A stretch of DNA of 15,745 nucleotides, taken from UHGV virus genome UHGV-0374175. One strand, 5' to 3'. The position numbers were made by a program, and so were the translations under genes. Below are positions 526 to 13,081 of the stretch, one piece after another (the stretch's first letter is position 1; the number at the start of each line of letters is the position of its first letter). Source of the DNA: a virus. The notes under the pieces were generated by a model that saw only the letters and a list, made by a program, of their open reading frames with translations, ran no database searches and had not been told where the DNA came from.

Positions 526-1182
526 CTATTTAACATACTTGACTGTTAAACTTATAATTTTACCAATTATTTCAATGTCTTCTATCTTGCATTCGAAGGC
601 TCTGTTTCCACCCTCGACGAAGATTCTTCCACCGGGTAAACGAGTAATGTCACGGATCGTTATTTCGCCATCAATACTTATTACCCATTTACCATCACGT
701 ATATCATCAAATTCTTTATCACAAATAAATTCAGAATTGTTATCTGTGATGACAAAAGGTTTTTTAAACGTAGAGGGTAGAAATCCCTTATCAAAAATAT
801 AAAAACCGTCTTTCTGCAATGCTCCATCAGACAATAAATATTTTTCTACTTCTATAGTATTTGTATTTGCTGATGCTTGCTTTGAACCATGCCCTGTTGT
901 TAGCCAATTAAGCGAGGTGCCCGTTTCAAGGGCGCACTGGATTACCCAATCTGCTGGAAAAATATCACGCATATAGCGCGTTGCCATGGTGCTCTTAGAA
1001 ACACCTAAATGATCACAGAGAGCCTGACGAGTACCGAACCCATATGCTTCAACTAAACGTTCTATGGCTTTCTTACCGCCGCTATTGAAATCCACAAGTC
1101 CTCCAAAGAAATCCAAAATTCGTTGACAGATTCCAAAAGCGATCTTAAAGTTGAACCAGAAGTGTTCTTTTGGAGCCTTCAC
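526..1182 (-). CDS. cI: Phage 186-type CI immunity repressor
   Basis: The ORF contains ...LVEAYGFGTRQALCDHLGVSKSTMATRYMRD...CALETGTSLNWLTTGHG, which fits my recollection of the N-terminal HTH region of coliphage 186 CI. It is transcribed divergently from the apl/cII early operon. The true start may be the internal GTG at 1095, which is preceded by GGAGGA and would give about 190 aa; the longest ORF starts at ATG 1182. Confidence 0.75.
   Translation of the reverse strand: MKAPKEHFWFNFKIAFGICQRILDFFGGLVDFNSGGKKAIERLVEAYGFGTRQALCDHLGVSKSTMATRYMRDIFPADWVIQCALETGTSLNWLTTGHGSKQASANTNTIEVEKYLLSDGALQKDGFYIFDKGFLPSTFKKPFVITDNNSEFICDKEFDDIRDGKWVISIDGEITIRDITRLPGGRIFVEGGNRAFECKIEDIEIIGKIISLTVKYVK
1123..1151 (+). 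promoter_or_regulatory. Candidate sigma70 early lytic promoter (pR-like)
   Basis: TTGACA at 1123-1128, a 17-nt spacer, then TAAAGT at 1146-1151, upstream of the apl-like gene. It would lie in the intergenic region only if cI starts at the GTG at 1095. Confidence 0.35.
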
Positions 1183-3309: not shown

Positions 3310-3608
3310 CAGGGGCTGTGCGTATCCATCAATTAAAAATTGCACCTAAGTATTTCAACGCTGTGGTTGCAGGTCAAAAGACGGCTGAACTTCGTAAAGA
3401 CGATCGTGGCTATAAAGTTGGTGATGTTCTTTCTCTTTGCGAATGGAAGCATGGCGTATTTACGGGTAGGGAATGGGCCGCGGTTATCTCTCATGTGCTT
3501 CCGGTTAATGACGTCATGGCAGTTTCAGAACAATGGGTGATGCTATCAATTCGCTCATTAACCCCATTAGAAGCTTTAGGATATGTTATTGCAGGAGGTG
3601 CTGTATGA
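3306..3608 (+). CDS. ASCH/PUA-like small protein (DUF3850-like), hypothetical
   Basis: ATG at 3306 overlaps the upstream stop (ATGA) and is preceded by GGAGG. The 100-aa product [33 protein letters not shown]... resembles ASCH-domain proteins often found next to phage methyltransferases. The tracked ORF start at 3246 is probably too far upstream. Confidence 0.6.
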
Positions 3609-4462
3609 GCACCATCCTGAAATGGGCGGGTAATAAAACCACCATTATGTCCGAACTGAAAAAATACCTTCCTGCTGGCACGCGACTGGTTGAACCTTTC
3701 GCGGGTTCTTGTGCTGTGATGATGGAGACGGATTACCCCAGCTATCTGGTTGCGGATATTAATCCTGATTTAATCAACCTCTATAAAAAGGTTGCTGCTG
3801 ATTGTGAGGCGTTTATATCTCGTGCCAGAGCTTTATTTGAGGAAGCAAACAGAGAGGTGGCTTATTACAACATAAGGCAGGAGTTTAATTACTCCACTGA
3901 AATTACTGATTTCATGAAAGCGGTATATTTTCTGTATCTCAATCGTCATGGTTACCGTGGGCTATGTCGCTATAACAAGAGCGGGTATTTCAACATTCCC
4001 TACGGTAATTATAAAAATCCGTATTTCCCTGAAAAAGAAATTCGCGCATTTGCAGAGAAAGCCCAGCGGGCAACGTTTATCTGCGCCAGCTTTGATGAAA
4101 CGCTGGCGATGTTGAAGGCGGGGGATGTGGTGTATTGCGATCCGCCTTATGACGGTACGTTTTCCGGCTATCACACTGATGGCTTCACTGAAGATGACCA
4201 GTATCACCTGGCATCCGTTCTTGAACATCGATCATCTGAAGGTCATCCGGTCATTGTTTCTAACAGTGACACATCCCTGATCCGTTCGCTGTATCGCAAT
4301 TTTACTCACCACTACATCAAGGCAAAACGCAGCATCGGCGTGGCAGCTGGTGAGAGTAAATCTGCAACAGAAATCATCGCTGTTTCCGGGCCGCGCTGCT
4401 GGGTAGGATTTGATCCTTCGCGTGGCGTGGATTGTTCCGTCGTGTACGGAGTGCGTGCATGA
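3605..4462 (+). CDS. dam: DNA adenine methyltransferase (Dam-like, GATC N6-adenine MTase)
   Basis: LKWAGNK and EPFAGSCAV (AdoMet binding), [16 protein letters not shown], and the catalytic DPPY in [10 protein letters not shown]; strongly collinear with E. coli Dam as I recall it. ATG at 3605 overlaps the upstream stop. Confidence 0.9.
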
Positions 4463-6873
4463 GCCATGCTGATATGAACAACTGCAGCGGCTTTAACGAG
4501 GTCGCCGCAGCATTCTCATGGAACAGCCCGAAAAAGGCCATTAACCCTTATCTGGACCCGGCGGAAGTTGCGCCGGTTTCTGCGCTTTCAAACCTGATCA
4601 CTCTGTACGCTGCCGATAACGAGCAGGAACAACTGCGCCGCGAGGCACTGAGTGATCAGGTCTGGGAGCGTTATTTCTTTAATGAATCCCGTGATCCTGT
4701 CCAACGCGAAATGGAGCAGGATAAGCTAATTAGCCGGGCAAAGCTGGCGCATGAGCAGCAGCGTTTTAATCCAGACATGGCCATTCTGGCGGACGTCAAC
4801 GCCCAGCCTTCCCATATCAGCAAGCCGCTGATGCAACGTATTAAATACTTCAGCAGCCTGGGCAGGCCAAAGGCTTATTCCCGCTATTTGCGTGAGACGA
4901 TTAAGCCATGCTTGGAACGACTGGAGCATGTACGCGACAGTCAGCTATCCACTTCTTTTCGCTTTATGGCAAGCCATGAAGGGCTGGACGGCCTGCTGAT
5001 CCTGCCTGAAATGAGTCAGGATCAGGTGAAACGCCTGTCCACCTTGGTAGCTGCGCATATGAGCATGTGCCTTGATACAGCTTGTGGCGATTTGTATGCC
5101 ACCGATGATGTTACGCCAGAAGAAATCCGCAAGACATGGGAAAAGGTGGCAGCGGAAACCCTGCGTCTGGATGTTATCCCGCCTGCGTTTGAGCAACTCT
5201 GTCGGAAAAGAAACCGCCGTAAACCCGTGCCTTATGAACTCATTCCGGGTTCGCTGGCGCGTATGTTATGCGCCGACTGGTGGTATCGGAAATTATGGAA
5301 GATGCGTTGCGAATGGCGGGAAGAGCAGTTGCGTGCTGTTTGCCTGGTCAGCAAAAAAGCATCTCCCTATGTCAGCTATGAAGCTGTGATGCATAAACGT
5401 GAGCAGCGCCGTAAGTCGCTGGAGTTTTTCCGTTCTCATGAACTGGTGAACGAAGACGGCGACACGCTGGATATGGAAGACGTGGTAAACGCCAGCAGCA
5501 GCAACCCTGCGCATCGCCGCAATGAGATGATGGCCTGTGTTAAAGGTCTGGAGCTTATCGCGGAAATGCGTGGTGACTGCGCCGTTTTCTACACCATCAC
5601 CTGTCCGTCACGTTTCCATTCCACGCTAAATAACGGCAGGCCCAACCCGACCTGGACAAATGCGACGGTAAGACAAAGCAGTGATTATCTGGTCGGTATG
5701 TTTGCTGCATTTCGTAAGGCGATGCACAAAGCCGGATTACGCTGGTATGGCGTGCGGGTGGCTGAGCCGCATCATGACGGTACAGTTCACTGGCACCTGT
5801 TGTGTTTTATGCGCAAAAAAGATCGCCGCGCCATTACTGCTTTGTTGCGTAAGTTTGCCATTCGTGAAGACCGCGAGGAGCTGGGTAATAACACGGAACC
5901 ACGCTTTAAGTCTGAGCTGATAAACCCGCGCAAAGGTACGCCAACAAGCTACATCGCGAAATACATCAGTAAGAACATTGACGGGCGTGGTCTGGCTGGC
6001 GAGATCAGCAAGGAAACGGGTAAATCCCTGCGTGATAACGCCGAATACGTTAATGCCTGGGCGTCTCTGCATCGTGTTCAGCAATTCCGCTTCTTTGGCA
6101 TTCCGGGGCGTCAGGCTTACCGTGAACTGCGATTGCTGGCTGGTCAGGCGGCAAGGCAACAGGGTGACAAAAAAGCAGGTGCGCCGGTACTGGATAACCC
6201 GCGTCTTGATGCCATTCTGGCTGCTGCGGATGCTGGTTGTTTTGCCACCTACATCATGAAGCAGGGTGGCGTACTGGTTCCCCGTAAATATCACCTCATC
6301 AGAACCGCTTATGAAATCAACGAAGAGCCGACCGCCTATGGCGATCACGGCATTCGTATTTATGGCATCTGGTCACCCATTGCAGAGGGCAAGATCTGCA
6401 CTCATGCAGTGAAGTGGAAAATGGTTCGTAAAGCCGTTGACGTTCAGGAGGCGGCAGCCGACCAGGGCGCTTGCGCCCCTTGGACTCGTGGCAATAACTG
6501 TCCCCTTGCTGAAAATTTGAACCAACAGGAGAAAGATAAATCAGCTGATGGGGACACCAGAACGGACATTACCCGCATGGATGACAAGGAGTTGCACGAT
6601 TACCTGCACAGTATGAGCAAAAAAGAGCGCCGGGAACTGGCAGCAAGGTTACGCCAGGTGAAGCCGAAAAGGCGTAAAGACTACAAACAGCGAATTACAG
6701 ATCATCAGCATCAGCAGCTCGTCTATGAACTGAAGTCCAGAGGATTTGATGGCAGCGAGAAAGAGGTCGATTTACTCCTTCGCGGTGGCAGTCTTCCGTC
6801 AGGAGCAGGCCTGCGTATCTTCTATCGGAACCAGCGTTTGCAGGAAGATGATAAGTGGCGGAACCTGTATTAA
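4459..6873 (+). CDS. A: Replication initiation endonuclease (P2 gpA / 186 A family, rolling-circle initiator)
   Basis: 804-aa ORF. ATG at 4459 overlaps the Dam stop (ATGA) and follows GGAG. It contains [11 protein letters not shown] (HUH-type metal-binding motif) and YIAKYISKN (catalytic tyrosine region), typical of the P2 A family. Position after the TraR-like ORF matches P2/186. Confidence 0.9.
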
Positions 6874-6942: not shown

Positions 6943-7000
6943 TTTACATCAGTAAGATTATTATATACTGTAAATATAAACATTGGTTATATATACAGTA
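6943..7000 (+). promoter_or_regulatory. Candidate SOS-regulated promoter (p95-like) with LexA-box-like operator(s)
   Basis: TTTACA at 6943-6948 and a -10-like TATACT at 6964-6969. Overlapping this is tACTGTaaatataaACATtg (CTGT-N8-ACAT, 16 of 20 matches to the LexA consensus TACTGTATATATATACAGTA). A second, weaker half-site ends in ACAG at 6995-6998. All lie directly upstream of the tum-like/DinI-like pair. Confidence 0.4.
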
Positions 7001-7025: not shown

Positions 7026-7214
7026 ATGCAGGACTATTTTTTGGAGTCTTTGAAGCTCCAGCGCATTGATTTTTTTCTTAAGCTTGTAGCGGCTAGTGAG
7101 TGTAGTGATGAAGAGAAGGGGCTGGCTTTGCAGTGGGTTTCTGAATTGACTGATGAACTCATGGCAAAAATCAGAACCCACGAATACAACCGCTCAATGG
7201 ATGTCGTTAACTGA
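7026..7214 (+). CDS. Hypothetical small protein, possible Tum (antirepressor) N-terminal-like module
   Basis: 62-aa ORF with a strong GGAGG RBS, located between the replication gene and a DinI-like ORF downstream of a LexA-box-like site. This is the position of tum in 186. Confidence 0.5.
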   Translation: MQDYFLESLKLQRIDFFLKLVAASECSDEEKGLALQWVSELTDELMAKIRTHEYNRSMDVVN

Positions 7215-7225
7215 GGGAGTAATTT

Positions 7226-7459
7226 ATGCGCATTGAAATAATGATCGATAAAGAGCAGAAGATTAGCCAGTCTACCCTGGAGGCCCTTGAATCCGAACTT
7301 TACCGCAATCTGCGCCCCCTGTATCCCAAAACGGTAATTCGTATCCGTAAAGGTAGCTCTAACGGTGTGGAACTGACTGGACTGCAACTGGACGAAGAAA
7401 GGAAGCAAGTGATGAAAATTATGCAGAAGGTGTGGGAAGACGACAGCTGGCTGCATTAA
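7226..7459 (+). CDS. DinI-family protein (Tum C-terminal-like / SOS-regulated)
   Basis: MRIEIMIDKEQKISQSTLEALESELYRNLRPLYP...KQVMKIMQKVWEDDSW is collinear with E. coli DinI as I recall it (MRIEVTIAK...ELSRR...ILQETWESADDW). GGGAG RBS. Confidence 0.8.
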   Translation: MRIEIMIDKEQKISQSTLEALESELYRNLRPLYPKTVIRIRKGSSNGVELTGLQLDEERKQVMKIMQKVWEDDSWLH

Positions 7460-7603
7460 GAAACGTTGCTGGCGTCTGAACTTGTTTCTGGCGTCAGCAA
7501 GGTTGAACAACGAGCCCTTGTGAGGCGTTAGCTCTGTAGTGCATGTCTATGCCGCATGAGATCGCATGATCGTTTGAGGATCGTTTTTGCTAAGGCCCGC
7601 CAG

Positions 7604-7628
7604 AACTGGCGGGCTTTTGCGTAGATCA
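7604..7628 (+). terminator. Rho-independent terminator
   Basis: GGCCCGCCAG (7604-7613), 2-nt loop, CTGGCGGGC (7616-7624), followed by TTTT (7625-7628). Confidence 0.7.
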
Positions 7629-7663
7629 TGCAGGTGCATGAAAACCACTACATAAAGCGGGCA

Positions 7664-7682
7664 GGCGTGGCGGGGATACGAG
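7664..7682. other. cos-like motif (possible cohesive-end site of the P2/186 family)
   Basis: GGCGTGGCGGGGA at 7664-7676 matches the first 13 nt of the P2/186 19-nt cohesive end as I recall it (GGCGAGGCGGGGAAAGCAC in P2); the remaining 6 nt diverge. It lies between the replication-side genes and the portal side, where the cos of a P2-family prophage should be. Confidence 0.3.
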
Positions 7683-7690
7683 CGCGCGCC

Positions 7691-7719
7691 TTGCCTTATA
7701 TCTATTTGTTCATTAAAAT
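7691..7719 (+). promoter_or_regulatory. Candidate sigma70 promoter for the retron ncRNA/operon
   Basis: TTGCCT at 7691-7696, 17-nt spacer, TAAAAT at 7714-7719, at the left edge of the AT-rich island and upstream of the palindrome and RT gene. Confidence 0.4.
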
Positions 7720-7725
7720 CATTAT

Positions 7726-7925
7726 GCTCTTTAGTGTAGGAACATTGGTTCCAGCCGGGTGATTAGCCAGGCTTAAATTTATTGTCCGGTTTAGGGTTGC
7801 GAAAGACACAGATTTCTCCTTCGCATCCCTGCCCGGGGCAGATATGCGAAGGAGAAATCTGTGTCTTTCGCTGTCTTTAGTGAAGAGTCAAAGCGCTATG
7901 TAAAGTTGCATAGCGCTTTGGTTTT
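7726..7925 (+). ncRNA. Putative retron msr-msd non-coding RNA (boundaries approximate)
   Basis: Non-coding stretch immediately upstream of a retron-type RT. It contains a 28-bp perfect inverted repeat (the likely msd template stem) and a second 12-bp stem-loop before the RT start. I could not identify a convincing a1/a2 inverted-repeat pair or the branching G by eye, so the ends are not defined. Confidence 0.45.
7799..7871. repeat. 28-bp perfect inverted repeat with 17-nt spacer (probable msd stem-loop)
   Basis: GCGAAAGACACAGATTTCTCCTTCGCAT (7799-7826) is the exact reverse complement of ATGCGAAGGAGAAATCTGTGTCTTTCGC (7844-7871). The spacer itself contains the palindrome CTGCCC-G-GGGCAG. Confidence 0.9.
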
Positions 7926-7937
7926 AAGAGGGGTTAT

Positions 7938-8873
7938 ATGCAACTAACTTCTAAAATTATCAGTAAGTTTAATTATAATAGATTAGCTTTCCAATTACTT
8001 TTAAATGAGGCCCCCAAAAAATATAAAGTTTATTATATTCCTAAACGTGGCGCAGGTTTTCGGGTGATAGCTCAGCCGACAAAGGAACTAAAAAACGTAC
8101 AGAGATTTATAGTATCTTTGCTACAGCCAAAGCTGCCTGTTCATCATAAGGCAATGGCATATGAATATAAAAAAAGTATTAAAGATAATGCATTGTTGCA
8201 TAAAGATAATAATTATATTCTTAAAATGGATTTTCAGAACTTCTTTAACAAAATTAAACCTGATATATTTTTCTCGAAACTTGAGAACACAGGGCTGAAA
8301 TTGGATTCATTTGATGAGAACACCCTACGTAATTTGCTTTTTTGGCGTCCGGGAAAAAAGAGAAGTACAACGTTGATATTAAGTGTAGGGGCGCCAAGCT
8401 CACCATTTATTAGTAATTTTGTTATGTATGACTTTGACAAGAGTCTTGATGATTGGTGCCGTAACAATGGTATCACTTATTCAAGGTATGCAGATGATAT
8501 AACTTTTTCAACTAATATTAAGGATATATTGTGCAGGGTTCCTAAGGTGGTAAAAAAAATGTTGTCGCTCCATGTTCCCGGTCTATCAATCAATGAATCT
8601 AAAACAATTTTTACATCGATGGCTCATAATCGGCACGTGACTGGTGTAACACTTACACCTCAGGGCAATTTATCAATTGGTCGCGATCGTAAAAGGATGC
8701 TGTTTGCAAAGATTCATAAATATTCTTTGGGACTCTTATCTTCCGAAGAAATAAATAAAACCAAAGGGATGATTGCGTTTGCAAATTATTTGGAGGGTGA
8801 TTTTTTATTAAGGTTACAAAAAAAATATGGTTGTGAGTTAATAACTAAGTTCCTGATGGAAGGAAACAAATAA
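7938..8873 (+). CDS. ret: Retron-type reverse transcriptase
   Basis: 311 aa. RT active site YADD (YSRYADDITFS), retron-typical motif NRHVTGVTL (NAxxH / VTG), and RT motifs such as VGAPSSPFISN. GAGGGG RBS. Preceded by structured non-coding DNA. Confidence 0.92.
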   Translation: MQLTSKIISKFNYNRLAFQLLLNEAPKKYKVYYIPKRGAGFRVIAQPTKELKNVQRFIVSLLQPKLPVHHKAMAYEYKKSIKDNALLHKDNNYILKMDFQNFFNKIKPDIFFSKLENTGLKLDSFDENTLRNLLFWRPGKKRSTTLILSVGAPSSPFISNFVMYDFDKSLDDWCRNNGITYSRYADDITFSTNIKDILCRVPKVVKKMLSLHVPGLSINESKTIFTSMAHNRHVTGVTLTPQGNLSIGRDRKRMLFAKIHKYSLGLLSSEEINKTKGMIAFANYLEGDFLLRLQKKYGCELITKFLMEGNK

Positions 8874-10507
8874 TGATAAATAAAATGAATTTAGAGACTT
8901 GCTATGTTGATTTTTTAGAGTTGGAATCACATGTGATAAACGAGGATTATTTGAAGGAGTCTGTTGAGCTTCAAAAGCTAATATCTACTTTAAATGAGAG
9001 TAAGTTTCATTTAAATAAAATAGGTATACATGATTTTAAACGGATAAGAGAACTACAGATTTCCTTAGAAGATGATTTGACTGTTTTTGTCGGGGATAAC
9101 GGATTCGGTAAAAGCACTATTTTGGATGCAATAGCAATTGTTTTGAGTTGGTTGAGATCAAATATTGAAAAGGAGAGTAAGCCTGGTACTTATATTAAAA
9201 GCCATGAAGTTAATAACTCTGTTGATGTTGAGTATGCATCAATTGATGCAAATATAAAACTTAAGGACTTTAATACCAGTATTTTGATTACTAAAGCGAA
9301 AGAGGGGGCATATTATTCTAGAAATAATGAATTGTTGGAGGTAAAAAAACTTGCAAGTATTTATAGACTTGTGAATAAATATGTTGATAATGCAAGCTTG
9401 CCTTTGATGGCATATTATTCTATTGCGCGTTCTTATATAGGCGGTGGGGTTGATAGGAAAAGAAAAAATGCTAAAACTAAAACTGTATGGTCAAAATTCG
9501 ATGTGTATGATGAAATCGAGTTTGACAGAAATGATTTTACCGATTTTTTTCAATGGCTTGTATTTCTTCATAACAGAGCTTCACAAGAGAAATTGAGTGA
9601 GTCACAAACGACAATCAATGCGTTATTTTCAGATATTCAAAGTTTGAAAGCAACATTAACTCAACTATCTGCGATTGATAATATTGATTCAACAGTTATA
9701 AAAGGTTTAGAGCTTTCGCTTAAAGAAAAATTGAACTACATGAAATCTCTGCAATCAGGAGAACATAAGTTTAATAATGCAGTATCACTTTATGATAGTG
9801 TTATAAATACCATTCTAAAGTTCTTGCCTGAATTTCAGTGGATTAAGCTTGTTTATGGTGATGATGATTATAAGATTATCCTTAAAAAAGGAGAGGTTGA
9901 ATTAGATGTTCAACAGTTGTCTCAAGGTGAGAAAACTATATTTACTTTAGTTGGTGATTTGGCTCGACGTTTAATTTTACTTAATCCAAATTTATCTAAT
10001 CCTCTATTGGGATATGGGATTGTTTTAATTGATGAAATTGATTTGCATTTGCATCCGCAATGGCAACAGACAATTATTGAGCGTTTGACATCTACATTCC
10101 CAAATGTTCAATTTGTAGTTACTACCCATAGCCCACAGGTTTTATCCACTGTTAGCTCTCGTTCAGTGCGTATTCTACAGGAAGTGGAAGTAGATGGTGT
10201 TAATGATTTGATAGTGTCTCACCCCGACTATCAAATAAAAGGTGTTAGTAATCAGGATGCACTTTTATATGGAATGAGAACTGATCCTATACCCTCTACT
10301 AAAGAAAATGGTTGGCTTGAAGAATATAAAAAATTGGTTGAGCTTAATCGTTATAGCAGTGACGAGGCTCTTTTGTTAAGAGAAAAAGTTATTAAACATT
10401 TCGGATTAGACCATCCTTTAGTTCAAGAGTGTGATGATCTTATATCTGTTTTGGAGTTCAAAAATAAGATAAATCAGCACTTTTCTGGAAGTAAGGATGT
10501 AAAATGA
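8873..10507 (+). CDS. ABC/SMC-like ATPase (Septu PtuA-like retron effector)
   Basis: 544 aa. Walker A GDNGFGKST, ABC signature-like LSQGEKTIF, Walker B VLIDEIDLHLHP, and a long helical middle region. Its start overlaps the RT stop (TAATG). Confidence 0.85.
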   Translation: MINKMNLETCYVDFLELESHVINEDYLKESVELQKLISTLNESKFHLNKIGIHDFKRIRELQISLEDDLTVFVGDNGFGKSTILDAIAIVLSWLRSNIEKESKPGTYIKSHEVNNSVDVEYASIDANIKLKDFNTSILITKAKEGAYYSRNNELLEVKKLASIYRLVNKYVDNASLPLMAYYSIARSYIGGGVDRKRKNAKTKTVWSKFDVYDEIEFDRNDFTDFFQWLVFLHNRASQEKLSESQTTINALFSDIQSLKATLTQLSAIDNIDSTVIKGLELSLKEKLNYMKSLQSGEHKFNNAVSLYDSVINTILKFLPEFQWIKLVYGDDDYKIILKKGEVELDVQQLSQGEKTIFTLVGDLARRLILLNPNLSNPLLGYGIVLIDEIDLHLHPQWQQTIIERLTSTFPNVQFVVTTHSPQVLSTVSSRSVRILQEVEVDGVNDLIVSHPDYQIKGVSNQDALLYGMRTDPIPSTKENGWLEEYKKLVELNRYSSDEALLLREKVIKHFGLDHPLVQECDDLISVLEFKNKINQHFSGSKDVK

Positions 10508-11187
10508 AATATCTATCTAGGCAAATGCCAGGGCCTTCCGTTCTTAATAAATTTGACTATAGGAGGGATGATTGGAATTCCCTATCATCAAATGATAAAA
10601 AAGAAATATGGGAAGAAATAATAAAAATGCAAGGTAAATTATGTGCTTATTGCGAGAAAAAAATAGAGCATCATAAAAGTGGTGACAAAAATAAAGTTGA
10701 GAGGCATATTGAGCATTTTTACAGGAAAAGTTATTACAAAAATTTAACTTTCGAGTGGTCTAATTTGTTTGGCTCATGTGGTGAGCCGCAAAGGTGTGGG
10801 TTTTATAAGGATAAGCAAAAATATAACGATGATGATTTAATTAAAGCTGATAGACAAAATCCAGATGTTTTTTTCCATTTTTTGGAAAATGGTGATGTTC
10901 ATATTAGAGAAGGCTTGAATGAGAAAGAACACAAAATGGCAGAGGTTACGTTAAGAGTATTTAACTTAAACCCGTCCTCAGGAGGAGTCAAGGCGGAAAG
11001 AAGACGTGCAATAGAATTAAGCATGACATTAATAAAGGAACTGGTCGGATGTGCATCTCAGCTTATTGAATCAGGATGTGAAATTGAAGATGTTAGATCT
11101 ATGGTCTTTGATGAGTTTAAAAAGAATGTAAAAGATAGATGCTTTACCACTGCGATAAAGCATGTTTTTGAGAATAGAATGCCTTAA
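10504..11187 (+). CDS. HNH endonuclease (Septu PtuB-like retron effector)
   Basis: 227 aa with CAYCEKKIEHH...ERHIEHFYRKS...NLFGSCGEPQRCGFY (Cys pairs plus His-rich HNH core). Its start overlaps the ATPase stop (ATGA). Confidence 0.85.
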   Translation: MKYLSRQMPGPSVLNKFDYRRDDWNSLSSNDKKEIWEEIIKMQGKLCAYCEKKIEHHKSGDKNKVERHIEHFYRKSYYKNLTFEWSNLFGSCGEPQRCGFYKDKQKYNDDDLIKADRQNPDVFFHFLENGDVHIREGLNEKEHKMAEVTLRVFNLNPSSGGVKAERRRAIELSMTLIKELVGCASQLIESGCEIEDVRSMVFDEFKKNVKDRCFTTAIKHVFENRMP

Positions 11188-11210: not shown

Positions 11211-12242
11211 TTAATCTATATTATATTCTGAGAAATTGATAATATGCATCCCTATCCACTGATTAAATTCATGGATTTTTTTTTGTAGAGGTACTAATTC
11301 ATTTGTCACAAAAACCTTACTAGCTTTCTCCACATCCCCAAACCCCCCAACATTATTCGGCATAATCCCCATCATTTGCGGCGGCACACGGTGTGCCGCC
11401 ATCATGTCGTCCCGGCTCACGTTCTTGATATTCAGAAATTCATCCTTCGCTGCAACTTCTGACAACGGGATGATCTGAAGCCCGTCCTTTTTGCCGTTAG
11501 GCGAGTACATAAACAAGTTACGGAAGTTGCCCGGTCCTTTGGCGTTTTTCATCGCGTTGCGGAGGTTGTTCACATCCTCCTGGTTCTGCGCGGCGTCAGT
11601 CATATACATGATGAAGCCTGCATGACTGCCGTTAATGTAATACTTGCGGCGGAACAGCGTGGCGGACTCGTTGAGCAGGGCTGACGGAATGGCAGAAAGA
11701 TAACCGGGCAGGCCGTAGATCTCCTGGTTGATGTCCGGTTCCATCAGATGAAAAATGCTGCCTTTCGCGAACTGATACGGCTGGGTTGTCATACCGTATT
11801 GCACAAACCAGTAGGTATCCAGGTCTAACCCGCGTCGGGTGTATTTTGCCAGCGCAGGCTCAAGGGCGATAACTTCACCGAATCGGTTCGTGCGTTTCTC
11901 CAGGTAGGCGTTACCAAATACCAGATAGTCCAGCACAAAACGCGAAAAAGCCTGCTGGCTGAGAAGCGGGTGAGGGATGTAGGTGCTGGTCAGAATGTTG
12001 CATTTCACTGCAATTGGTGAACTGTGATGCACGGCAGCGCGGAAGGTGCGCGCCAGTCCGTCAAAGCTGACGGGAGGCTCATACCAGCGATCTGTCTGTA
12101 CGCATTCCACATAGTCCAGCAGTTCGCGGCGGTCAAGTACTGGAATGGGATCACCGAAGCTGAATGCTTCGGCTGAAGCTTGGCTTTTATGCTGGATCTG
12201 GTTCGTCGCCGCAGCGCGTTTTTTTTTACTCTTTCCCATCAA
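11211..12242 (-). CDS. Q: Portal (capsid portal vertex) protein, P2 gpQ family
   Basis: 343-aa ORF matching my recollection of P2 Q in length and arrangement. It is convergent with the cargo island, and its start overlaps the stop of the upstream terminase gene (ATGA), as in the P2 P-Q operon. Confidence 0.85.
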   Translation of the reverse strand: MMGKSKKKRAAATNQIQHKSQASAEAFSFGDPIPVLDRRELLDYVECVQTDRWYEPPVSFDGLARTFRAAVHHSSPIAVKCNILTSTYIPHPLLSQQAFSRFVLDYLVFGNAYLEKRTNRFGEVIALEPALAKYTRRGLDLDTYWFVQYGMTTQPYQFAKGSIFHLMEPDINQEIYGLPGYLSAIPSALLNESATLFRRKYYINGSHAGFIMYMTDAAQNQEDVNNLRNAMKNAKGPGNFRNLFMYSPNGKKDGLQIIPLSEVAAKDEFLNIKNVSRDDMMAAHRVPPQMMGIMPNNVGGFGDVEKASKVFVTNELVPLQKKIHEFNQWIGMHIINFSEYNID

Positions 12243-13081
12243 AAAATCTCCACAATATTGCTGGTATTGGCGGACTCGCCCTGCAGCGGTTCGTTAAACA
12301 GTGCGTGCATTGTTGCCCAGGCCAGATCGGCATGGCTGGCTTCTTCACTGCGGCTTGCTTCATAGGTCGGGCGGTTGCCGCTGGCGGTGGTTGCGCGACG
12401 GATTGCCATAAATGACTGCGCTATGTCGGTGTGTCCGGCGTCAAACTCCAGACGACGGTGACTGATAATGTCGTAGGCCTTGAGTACCAGGGCGTTTTTA
12501 ACGTTGGGGTTGTAGACAAACTCCCGGACGGCTGGAAAAAACGCTTTCACGTTTTCATAAACCCCGTGACCGACACCCGTCGAGTCGATGCCGATATAGG
12601 TCACGTTGTACTGTTCGGTCAGTTTTTTGATGGCGTCAGCCTGGGCGCGGAAGTCCATCCCGCGCCACTGGTGACGCTCAAGAATGCGGAACTTACCGCC
12701 CGGCACGGCTGGCGGTGCCACCACCACGCATCCGGCGCTGTCGCCGTTTTGCGTACCTTTTGCCGGGTCATAACCGATCCACACCTCGCGCCAGCCAAAC
12801 GGGCGCAGGGCCAGTGCATGAAAGTCGGTCCAGACTTCCCAGCTGTCCACCATGCACGCCTGCAGCTCGCTGAGCGGGAACACGGACGCGAGATCGTCCA
12901 CGAACTCGCACATCAGCAGGTTCTGGTATTCGTCCGGGCTGTACTCCATGCGCAACTGGTCAAGGTCGAACAGGTTACAGCCGCCGCGCACCGCATCTTC
13001 CACGGTGACTATCTGGCGGTATTGCCCGTCTGCGCACAGCAGGCCGGGGGCCAGATTGCTATGGGACAGGTCGATGTCCAC
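12239..13081 (-). pseudogene. P: Terminase large (ATPase) subunit, P2 gpP family: C-terminal fragment only
   Basis: The 280-aa ORF (reported start is a GTG) is directly upstream of and coupled to Q. The frame is open upstream to a stop at 13172-13174 with no ATG/GTG/TTG start in between, so the N-terminal ATPase half is absent. The upstream side abuts a baseplate-J fragment on the other strand. Confidence 0.75.

Follow-up and report, generated by a model that had tools for sequence, protein, structure and literature searches.

The cos region, the cohesive-end packaging site, is the only part that P4 shares with P2 (PMC9122126, PMC9594776). It includes a common P2/P4 core of about 55 bp, attributed to Ziermann and Calendar in 1990 (PMC9594776, PMC5247547), and in one study longer packaging signals or flanks raised transduction more than 1000-fold (PMC9594776). 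Adjoining cos in P2, between gpA and gpQ, is a defence hot spot (Rousset 2022, PMC9122126). Phage P1 uses a pac site, in which seven Dam sites (TGATCA/G hexamers) spaced 7 to 15 bp apart place cleavage under the control of methylation (PMC10028697). SeqA, for its part, binds hemimethylated GATC sites that come in pairs on a single face of the helix (PMC2691817). These systems frame the locus we describe here, a cluster of four GATC sites in the virus genome UHGV-0374175. The window, by which we mean the whole stretch of 15,745 nucleotides that was analysed, is a P2-family prophage. There is little doubt that the interval carrying the cluster is a cos packaging site's accessory (right) arm, in a P2-like prophage of the Fels-2/SEN8 type. 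Among the four sites, two that are 11 bp apart seem to have been kept as GATC by selection, and we think it on balance likely that both of these statements, the identity of the arm and the selection on the pair, hold together. That the pair makes packaging sensitive to methylation is a more tentative proposal, which we weigh below against its rivals.

The identity of cos comes from aligning positions 7440 to 7760 with the joined right and left ends of 186 and P2, to which the homology is clear. The window reads TGCATGAAAACCACTACATAAAGCGGGCA, then GGCGTGGCGGGGATACGAG, then CGCGCGC, and these match the core on the arm side, the 19-nt end and the bases that directly follow it in both phages, whose own cohesive ends are GGCGTGGCGGGGAAAGCAT (186) and GGCGAGGCGGGGAAAGCAC (P2). 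The original prediction had spoken of a cos-like motif; this is a genuine cos site, and the motif runs to 7682, giving an end of 19 nt. The two features on which everything else hangs are these, with positions in the arm counted from the nick:

7664 to 7682, plus strand: cohesive end of 19 nt, GGCGTGGCGGGGATACGAG, with the nick between 7663 and 7664.

7539 to 7690 (-125 to +27 from the nick): conserved cos (packaging) module, with variable cargo on both sides.

A cos of the P2/186/P4 type is expected to have a GC-rich 19-nt end of the form GGCGNGGCGGGGA followed by 6 nt, and the end in the window has this form, with 13 of its 19 bases identical to 186. The arm core TGCAT-AAAACC-N-AAGCGGGC is present at 7635 to 7663, as is (T/C)GCGCGC after the end (7683 to 7689). 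The site also lies where such a site should, between the accessory genes on the gpA side (gpA 4432 to 6873) and Q (11211 to 12242), a position that agrees with the defence hot spot known from P2 (PMC9122126). A pattern scan of viral contigs found GGCGTGGCGGGGATACGAG in 54 of 121 loci. The record of Salmonella phage SEN8 begins with exactly these letters, for which its annotation gives a putative cos site, and it ends on the base that aligns with window position 7663; the SEN8 genome paper names GGCGTGGCGGGGATACGAG as the cos site, identified by annotation (PMC5427200). Further afield, five Caulobacter and Phenylobacterium loci (L220, L233, L256, L279 and L323) match the core pattern and continue as GGCGCGGCGGGGATCATCA, so that a GATC would fall inside the putative cohesive end; they have no arm of GCAT repeats.

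Among 53 viral-contig relatives with the same cohesive end, similarity collapses beyond -125 on one side and +27 on the other. Between these limits the window is 100% identical over 151 bp to phage vB_EcoM-813R9 and aligns to the cos regions of 186, P2 and P4. Upstream, differing genes are inserted between DinI and the arm (186 has orf97 in the equivalent place); downstream, unrelated cargo begins 7 to 8 nt after the cohesive end. This close start of the cargo is seen both in the window's lineage (L006 to L125) and in P4-like satellites (L129 to L208), and in linear virion DNA the retron cassette of the window would be the outermost sequence of the left end. Among complete E. coli genomes, 1277 of 5426 have a match to the cos arm. 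We compared 283 loci with a genuine arm, drawn from viral contigs, from 80 P4-like satellites found via Psu and from 120 loci in species-representative genomes, the last spanning many enterobacterial genera. Their arms share the following elements:

7541, 7554 and 7564 (7541 to 7568), plus strand: three distal GCATG repeats, at -123, -110 and -100.

7595 to 7618, plus strand: GC-rich inverted repeat GCCCGCCAG-AA-CTGGCGGGC followed by TTTT, folding as a strong hairpin.

7628 to 7663, plus strand: proximal repeats ATGCAGGTGCATG, then AAAACC...AAAGCGGGCA, the arm-side part of the core of about 55 bp shared by P2 and P4.

Across genera, nearly all P2-like phages and P4-like satellites have GCAT at -123, -110 and -100, and these distal repeats are the most conserved 4-mers of the arm. 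Also among the most conserved is the core of the inverted repeat, CGCCAG-N4-CTGGCG near -66 to -53, which is common to 186 and P4. Closer to the nick, ATGCA-N2-TGCAT stands at -36 to -25 across the arm loci, and P4, which has only the cos region in common with P2, carries all of these elements. We infer that the distal repeats and the inverted repeat would be functional parts of the packaging site, probably a site on which terminase assembles. The GCAT repeats at -123/-110/-100 and -36/-28 and the inverted repeat reach well beyond the 55-bp core, and may already be in the 1990 cos paper. In the window's lineage the inverted repeat probably also terminates the SOS (DinI) operon. The terminator rule of our scan missed the hairpin at 7595 to 7618, which has a loop of 2 to 4 nt and only four T, and it was RNA folding that revealed it.

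Set into this shared architecture are the GATC sites. A count on the sequence bears out the four positions first reported (7560, 7568, 7579 and 7624), along with the direct repeats around them (GCATGA at 7554 and 7564, GATCGTTT at 7568 and 7579) and their arrangement about the hairpin, three upstream and one downstream of 7595 to 7618. The four are not alike in their history:

7568 to 7582: GATC-N7-GATC pair, sites at 7568 (-96) and 7579 (-85), 11 bp centre to centre.

7560 to 7563 (-104): variable GATC between repeats two and three; about half of the lineage has it.

7624 to 7627 (-40): variable GATC abutting the proximal ATGCA repeat, in about half of the lineage.

The site at 7560 has undergone 1, 5, 4 and 4 Fitch changes in its four columns. 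That at 7624 lies in GATCATGC, the reverse complement of the GCATGATC found at 7564 to 7571, and a GATC at -40 recurs in other arm families. Both are, on the comparative evidence, lineage-specific extras, or lineage noise. The pair is another matter. It is present at -96/-85 in 51 of the 53 lineage members, and on a neighbour-joining tree of 47 unique modules its eight columns have undergone 2 Fitch changes in total, vs an arm mean of 2.0 per column (P 0.02 against two random 4-column blocks). A conditional test on the non-satellite arms, which anchors on one GATC and scores the other, avoids ascertainment bias. Given a GATC at -96, the block at -85 shows 2 changes, which places it among the 4 least-changed of 86 four-column blocks and equals the count for the universal GCAT repeats; reciprocally, with the anchor on -85, the block at -96 is among the 7 lowest of 86. 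The pair is retained with 13 different 7-nt spacers, with five types of cohesive end (ATACGAG, ATAGCAT, ATAGCAC, AAAGCAT and AATGCAT) and with gpA proteins of both types, 30 to 100% identical to that of the window, on arms that have otherwise largely diverged. Across 112 non-satellite clusters the arm has 1.32 GATC per 100 bp between -100 and -51, vs 0.2 to 0.4 in the flanks. The sites recur at -105/-104, -96/-93, -85, -50 and -40, and the commonest spacing, seen in 30 of 55 neighbouring GATC pairs, is 11 bp. It is quite probable, given this pattern, that selection acts on 7568 and 7579 as GATC while the neighbouring bases drift. We found no description of a conserved one-turn GATC pair at cos in the literature that could be searched, and no paper that combines P2-like phages, Dam, GATC and cos.

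A second, unrelated family of arms offers a comparison. Its 10 unique arms (L209, L225, L236, L245, L250, L252, L253, L267, L270 and L301), from phages of Pectobacterium, Serratia and Rahnella, have GATC at -93, -50 and -40, the last two forming GATC-N6-GATC, and their gpA is of the P2 type. Of 95 arm columns 41 are invariant, and the only fully invariant 4-column blocks are GCAT at -110 and the three GATCs, whose flanks are variable. No Dam gene adjoins gpA in the four of these loci that have enough upstream sequence. In a Pectobacterium phage of this family (L270, -4550 to -3540), the gene directly upstream of gpA, in the place of Dam, encodes 337 amino acids with the motif SGGKDS, which by eye we take to suggest a PP-loop (PAPS-reductase-like) enzyme. 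The arms of the P4-like satellites, which come from only two or three sequence families, have 0.09 GATC per 100 bp, with none at all in 32 of 35 clusters. Satellites with the ATACGAG end would have tested the pair independently, but a search of 110 satellite loci gave none; the ends there are AAAGCAC, AGAGCAT, ATAGCAT, AAAGCAT or AAAGTAT. The Fels-2/SEN8-type lineage may lack P4-like satellites, or it may have diverged away from them.

The prophage also carries an adenine methylase gene upstream of gpA:

3533 to 4462, plus strand: phage Dam, open reading frame from 3533; RefSeq relatives annotate an 858-bp form, equal to 3605 to 4462.

That this is a Dam homologue, as originally predicted, holds up well. 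It matches the Pfam D12 methyltransferase family and NCBIfam TIGR00571 (320 bits), and comparison with the E. coli Dam structure 2g1p gives an E value of 5e-73, with the DPPY and LCRYN motifs kept. Since the phage enzyme is so close a homologue of E. coli Dam, specificity for GATC is likely, and it may act on the pair. Phages with a Dam gene tend to have GATC-rich arms (12 of 14 clusters vs 10 of 33), an association that is uncorrected for phylogeny and confounded by descent:

Dam-plus arm clusters: 12 with at least two GATC, 2 with fewer than two.

Dam-minus arm clusters: 10 with at least two GATC, 23 with fewer than two.

Every host is a Dam-plus enterobacterium, so methylation of the sites would take place whether or not the phage supplies an enzyme.

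What might a methylated pair do at cos? A link with packaging is anatomically reasonable because the GATC sites lie inside the conserved packaging module. In the mechanism we envisage, terminase (the small subunit gpM with gpP) would assemble at the GCAT repeats on the monomeric circle, and the GATC pair would be a selected sub-element of this assembly site. Host or phage Dam would set the methylation state of the pair. The most likely readers of that state are GATC-recognising proteins, because conservation is confined to the two tetramers and the one-turn phasing between them; either SeqA, on a hemimethylated pair, or terminase itself might do the reading. By analogy with P1 pac, cos would then be used or not according to whether the DNA was newly replicated. 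A methylation-dependent role of this kind for the pair in packaging is, in our estimation, possible but on the doubtful side. A broader form of the idea would be a counterpart, among cos phages, of the control at P1 pac: a GATC pair or trio at one-turn phasing makes packaging methylation-sensitive in several P2-like lineages of Dam-plus Enterobacterales, SeqA or terminase tells hemimethylated from fully methylated cos, phage Dam speeds maturation in many lineages, and satellites, having no such sites, escape the checkpoint. This we regard as rather unlikely. If the sites do act, they would modulate packaging rather than specify it.

A number of observations weigh against selection on the pair, against its role in packaging, or against both. 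When the set is widened with species-level loci and defined by the cohesive end alone, the support from Fitch changes weakens to P 0.087, owing to recombinant arms of the ATACGAG type (L229 and L317) that are of a different kind and have no GATC. The arms are related by descent, with some 3 to 5 arm families that have GATC and a similar number that do not; because the sequences are phylogenetically related, the independent observations are few. Packaging works well in P2, 186 and P4, whose arms are free of GATC, and satellites that share the ATAGCAT end with the GATC-rich Pectobacterium phages have none either, from which it follows that GATC is not needed for recognition by terminase as such. 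The association with phage Dam also has its exceptions. Three loci (L289, L008 and L321) have, in this order, CII, DUF5347, small genes and gpA, no Dam open reading frame, and still the pair; two others, from two lineages (L051 and L313), have Dam and an arm that lacks GATC. Persistence of the pair therefore does not require a Dam from the phage itself, since Dam-less sister phages keep it, and the second arm family says the same. Lastly, the density of GATC relative to the rest of the element, the comparison by which the original prediction was prepared to stand or fall, gives a marginal result only (P ~0.04 to 0.05): the clustering is there, and its significance within the window is slight.

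The explanation that survives best beside a methylation-dependent role accepts the cos arm as real and denies the GATCs any function in methylation, Dam methylating them incidentally. We would put its chances not far below even. The GATCs might be kept within a lineage-specific recognition sequence for a protein, for example an extended third repeat GCATGATCG with a half-copy GGATCG, or they might be carried along in a short module that recombines en bloc. The site at 7568 does share with the third GCATG repeat that repeat's final base, GCATGATCG is an invariant block and GATCGTTT is itself a direct repeat. That the arms of P2, 186 and P4 work without GATC, and that Dam-less sisters keep the pair, fit this explanation too, and the tests for selection are modest (P 0.02 to 0.09). 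It fits less well with the way the pair varies: in divergent arms hardly anything is left of the 7-nt spacer, of which 13 forms were mentioned above, or of the bases that follow the second GATC, while the tetramers and their phasing stay. The second arm family keeps its three GATCs at other places amid variable flanks, and most DNA-binding proteins read more than a bare 4-bp palindrome.

It is improbable that the four-site cluster is a chance feature of the window's sequence, although from the window alone one would hesitate to say so. The window holds 50 GATC, where shuffles lead one to expect 52.8, and so has no overall enrichment. Four sites within 64 bp anywhere in 15.7 kb have P 0.048 if placement is uniform and 0.040 by a first-order Markov model; three sites within 19 bp have P 0.08 and 0.04, respectively. 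Fifty of the 256 tetramers form an equally tight four-copy cluster somewhere in the window. Taken by itself, then, the cluster is not convincingly non-random, and the free variation of 7560 and 7624 among relatives agrees with chance. It was the comparative data that changed the verdict, because they show a peak of GATC density in the arm and two sites at fixed positions: of the 112 non-satellite arm clusters, 29 have GATC where 7568 and 7579 lie, and both sites belong to the blocks that vary least. Chance is largely refuted for these two, and tenable for 7560 and 7624.

The remaining alternatives concern the genes on either side of the arm, which are arranged as follows:

526 to 1182, minus strand: CI repressor.

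1500 to 2018: CII.

4432 to 6873: replication protein gpA.

7026 to 7214: open reading frame of 62 amino acids.

7226 to 7459: DinI-like gene.

7938 to 8873: Ec78-type retron reverse transcriptase.

8873 to 10507: PtuA.

10504 to 11187: PtuB.

11211 to 12242, minus strand: portal protein Q.

12239 to 13081, minus strand: P2-type terminase P, C-terminal half only.

The window is colinear with an intact prophage of E. coli 98208 only as far as 13135, inside the terminase gene P, and past this point it resumes at baseplate J, followed by tail protein I and the tail fibre. The prophage is defective, its head genes, lysis genes and part of its tail genes having been deleted. Just upstream of the 62-amino-acid reading frame and the DinI-like gene there is a LexA-box-like sequence, CTGTAAATATAAACAT, with a second imperfect copy (6968 to 7000); the order of this site and the two genes matches the SOS-controlled p95-tum arrangement of 186.

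One could suppose that the GATC sites belong to an RNA element, either the 3' untranslated region and terminator of the operon of the 62-amino-acid reading frame and DinI, or a small RNA. The region is transcribed up to the hairpin, the fold has a z-score of -3.8, and the operon has its LexA-box-like site upstream. Such a role is nonetheless unlikely, because the arm is conserved across transcriptional contexts and a scan of the whole window found no match to an Rfam family. Where other genes separate DinI from the arm, some of them on the opposite strand (SEN8 gp49), the arm is no less conserved, and P4-like satellites share its architecture in a different transcriptional context.

The last alternative, raised in the original prediction, is that the cluster makes expression of the retron depend on Dam through the neighbouring promoter:

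7691 to 7719, plus strand: promoter-like TTGCCT-17-TAAAAT of the retron cassette (Ec78-type reverse transcriptase, PtuA, PtuB), starting at +27.

Proximity is all that commends this idea, the sites lying 64 to 131 bp upstream of the -35 hexamer, and it is very unlikely: relatives have unrelated cargo after the same arm, a strong hairpin and cos itself stand between the promoter and three of the sites, none of the promoter elements is overlapped by an OxyR- or Lrp-like arrangement, and the msd of the retron has no GATC. The promoter belongs to the cargo and not to the cos module, because its start, +27, is the point at which relatives cease to be homologous; the idea that the sites control it is unsupported because the arm is conserved irrespective of the cargo that follows. 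In Dam-dependent phase-variable promoters of the pap, agn43 or gtr type one expects the GATCs to lie in regulator-binding sites that overlap or adjoin the promoter and to be conserved together with it; here the promoter is in the variable cargo, and the arm is conserved beside cargo of other kinds. A promoter scan found none inside the GATC cluster, and comparison by eye of 7555 to 7590 with the OxyR, Lrp and IHF consensus sequences gave no convincing match. The sole literature match for P2-like phages, adenine methylase and GATC was the triggering of retron-Sen2 by Dam through a GATC in its msDNA, which is irrelevant to an msd that has none. A copy of the same retron, 82% identical, stands directly after the same arm in E. 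coli M37H (L126, 7001 to 7400, compared with window 7534 to 7940). It has compensatory changes in the msd stem, and its prophage is also truncated in the terminase gene.

Were the pair to prove a methylation-read element, control of this sort would be described for the first time in a phage of the cos type. The Dam that many P2-like phages have next to the replication gene would find an explanation, and a difference between phage and satellite would be added at the sole region common to P2 and P4. Should the pair be mere sequence, the finding reduces to a correct cos annotation beside a retron defence cassette. The map of the arm may also be of practical use, since P2/P4 cosmids and transducing particles are under engineering. 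It indicates which flanks to include, namely the distal GCAT repeats, all three of them, together with the inverted repeat and the proximal ones and, in this lineage, the GATC pair.

How, finally, does the locus stand beside the systems with which we began? With P1 pac it has in common clustered GATC at a spacing of about one turn, inside the packaging site of a phage that encodes its own Dam, here one of probable GATC specificity. Spacings of 7, 12 and 15 bp, and of 12 and 11 bp, occur in P1 pac; here they are 8 and 11 bp. Four GATC fall in the module and two of them are conserved. P1 differs in packaging by the headful, in its unrelated pacase and in having hexamers on both sides of the cut, whereas here all sites are on one side. 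A comparison of P1 pac (NC_005856 90709 to 90885, L331) with 7539 to 7690 gave no significant homology: the shared words, 9- and 10-mers among them (CATGCAGGTG, ATGATCGTT and GCATGATC), have P ~0.03 to 0.1 by GATC-preserving shuffles and are probably coincidence. Targets of SeqA, as at oriC, resemble the pair in the 11-bp phasing of GATC-N7-GATC and in their setting, the hosts being Dam-plus and SeqA-plus Enterobacterales. A SeqA site calls for at least two GATC that share one side of the helix within about three turns, and 7568 and 7579 are so placed, making them a predicted site. The locus departs from those targets in having only 2 to 4 sites and in its position, since no origin function is known at cos and the origin of the P2 family is in gene A. 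Lambda cosB, with its small-terminase sites R3-I1-R2-R1 and its IHF bend, likewise has short repeats on one side of the nick with what we take here to be a bendable spacer; its motifs and proteins are unrelated, and P2-family phages package monomeric circles.

Near relatives are the cos sites of P2, 186 and P4. They share with the window a 19-nt 5' end GGCG(A/T)GGCGGGGA..., the core TGCAT-AAAACC...AAGCGGGC, three distal GCAT repeats, a central GC-rich inverted repeat and a place between the cargo on the gpA side and Q. They differ in the last 6 nt of the end (ATACGAG here), in having no GATC in an arm that here has 2 to 4, in the inverted repeat, which here has a T-run and probably acts as an operon terminator, and in the insertion of cargo, here 8 nt after the end, so that almost none of the left arm is kept. 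Also close are Fels-2, SEN8 and RE-2010 (Felsduovirus) and the Wadgaonvirus prophages. SEN8 has other cargo and no GATC at -104 or -40, and the window prophage is set apart from the group by its deletion from within the terminase gene to baseplate J, but all have the same cohesive end, GATC at -96 and -85, and Dam upstream of gpA.

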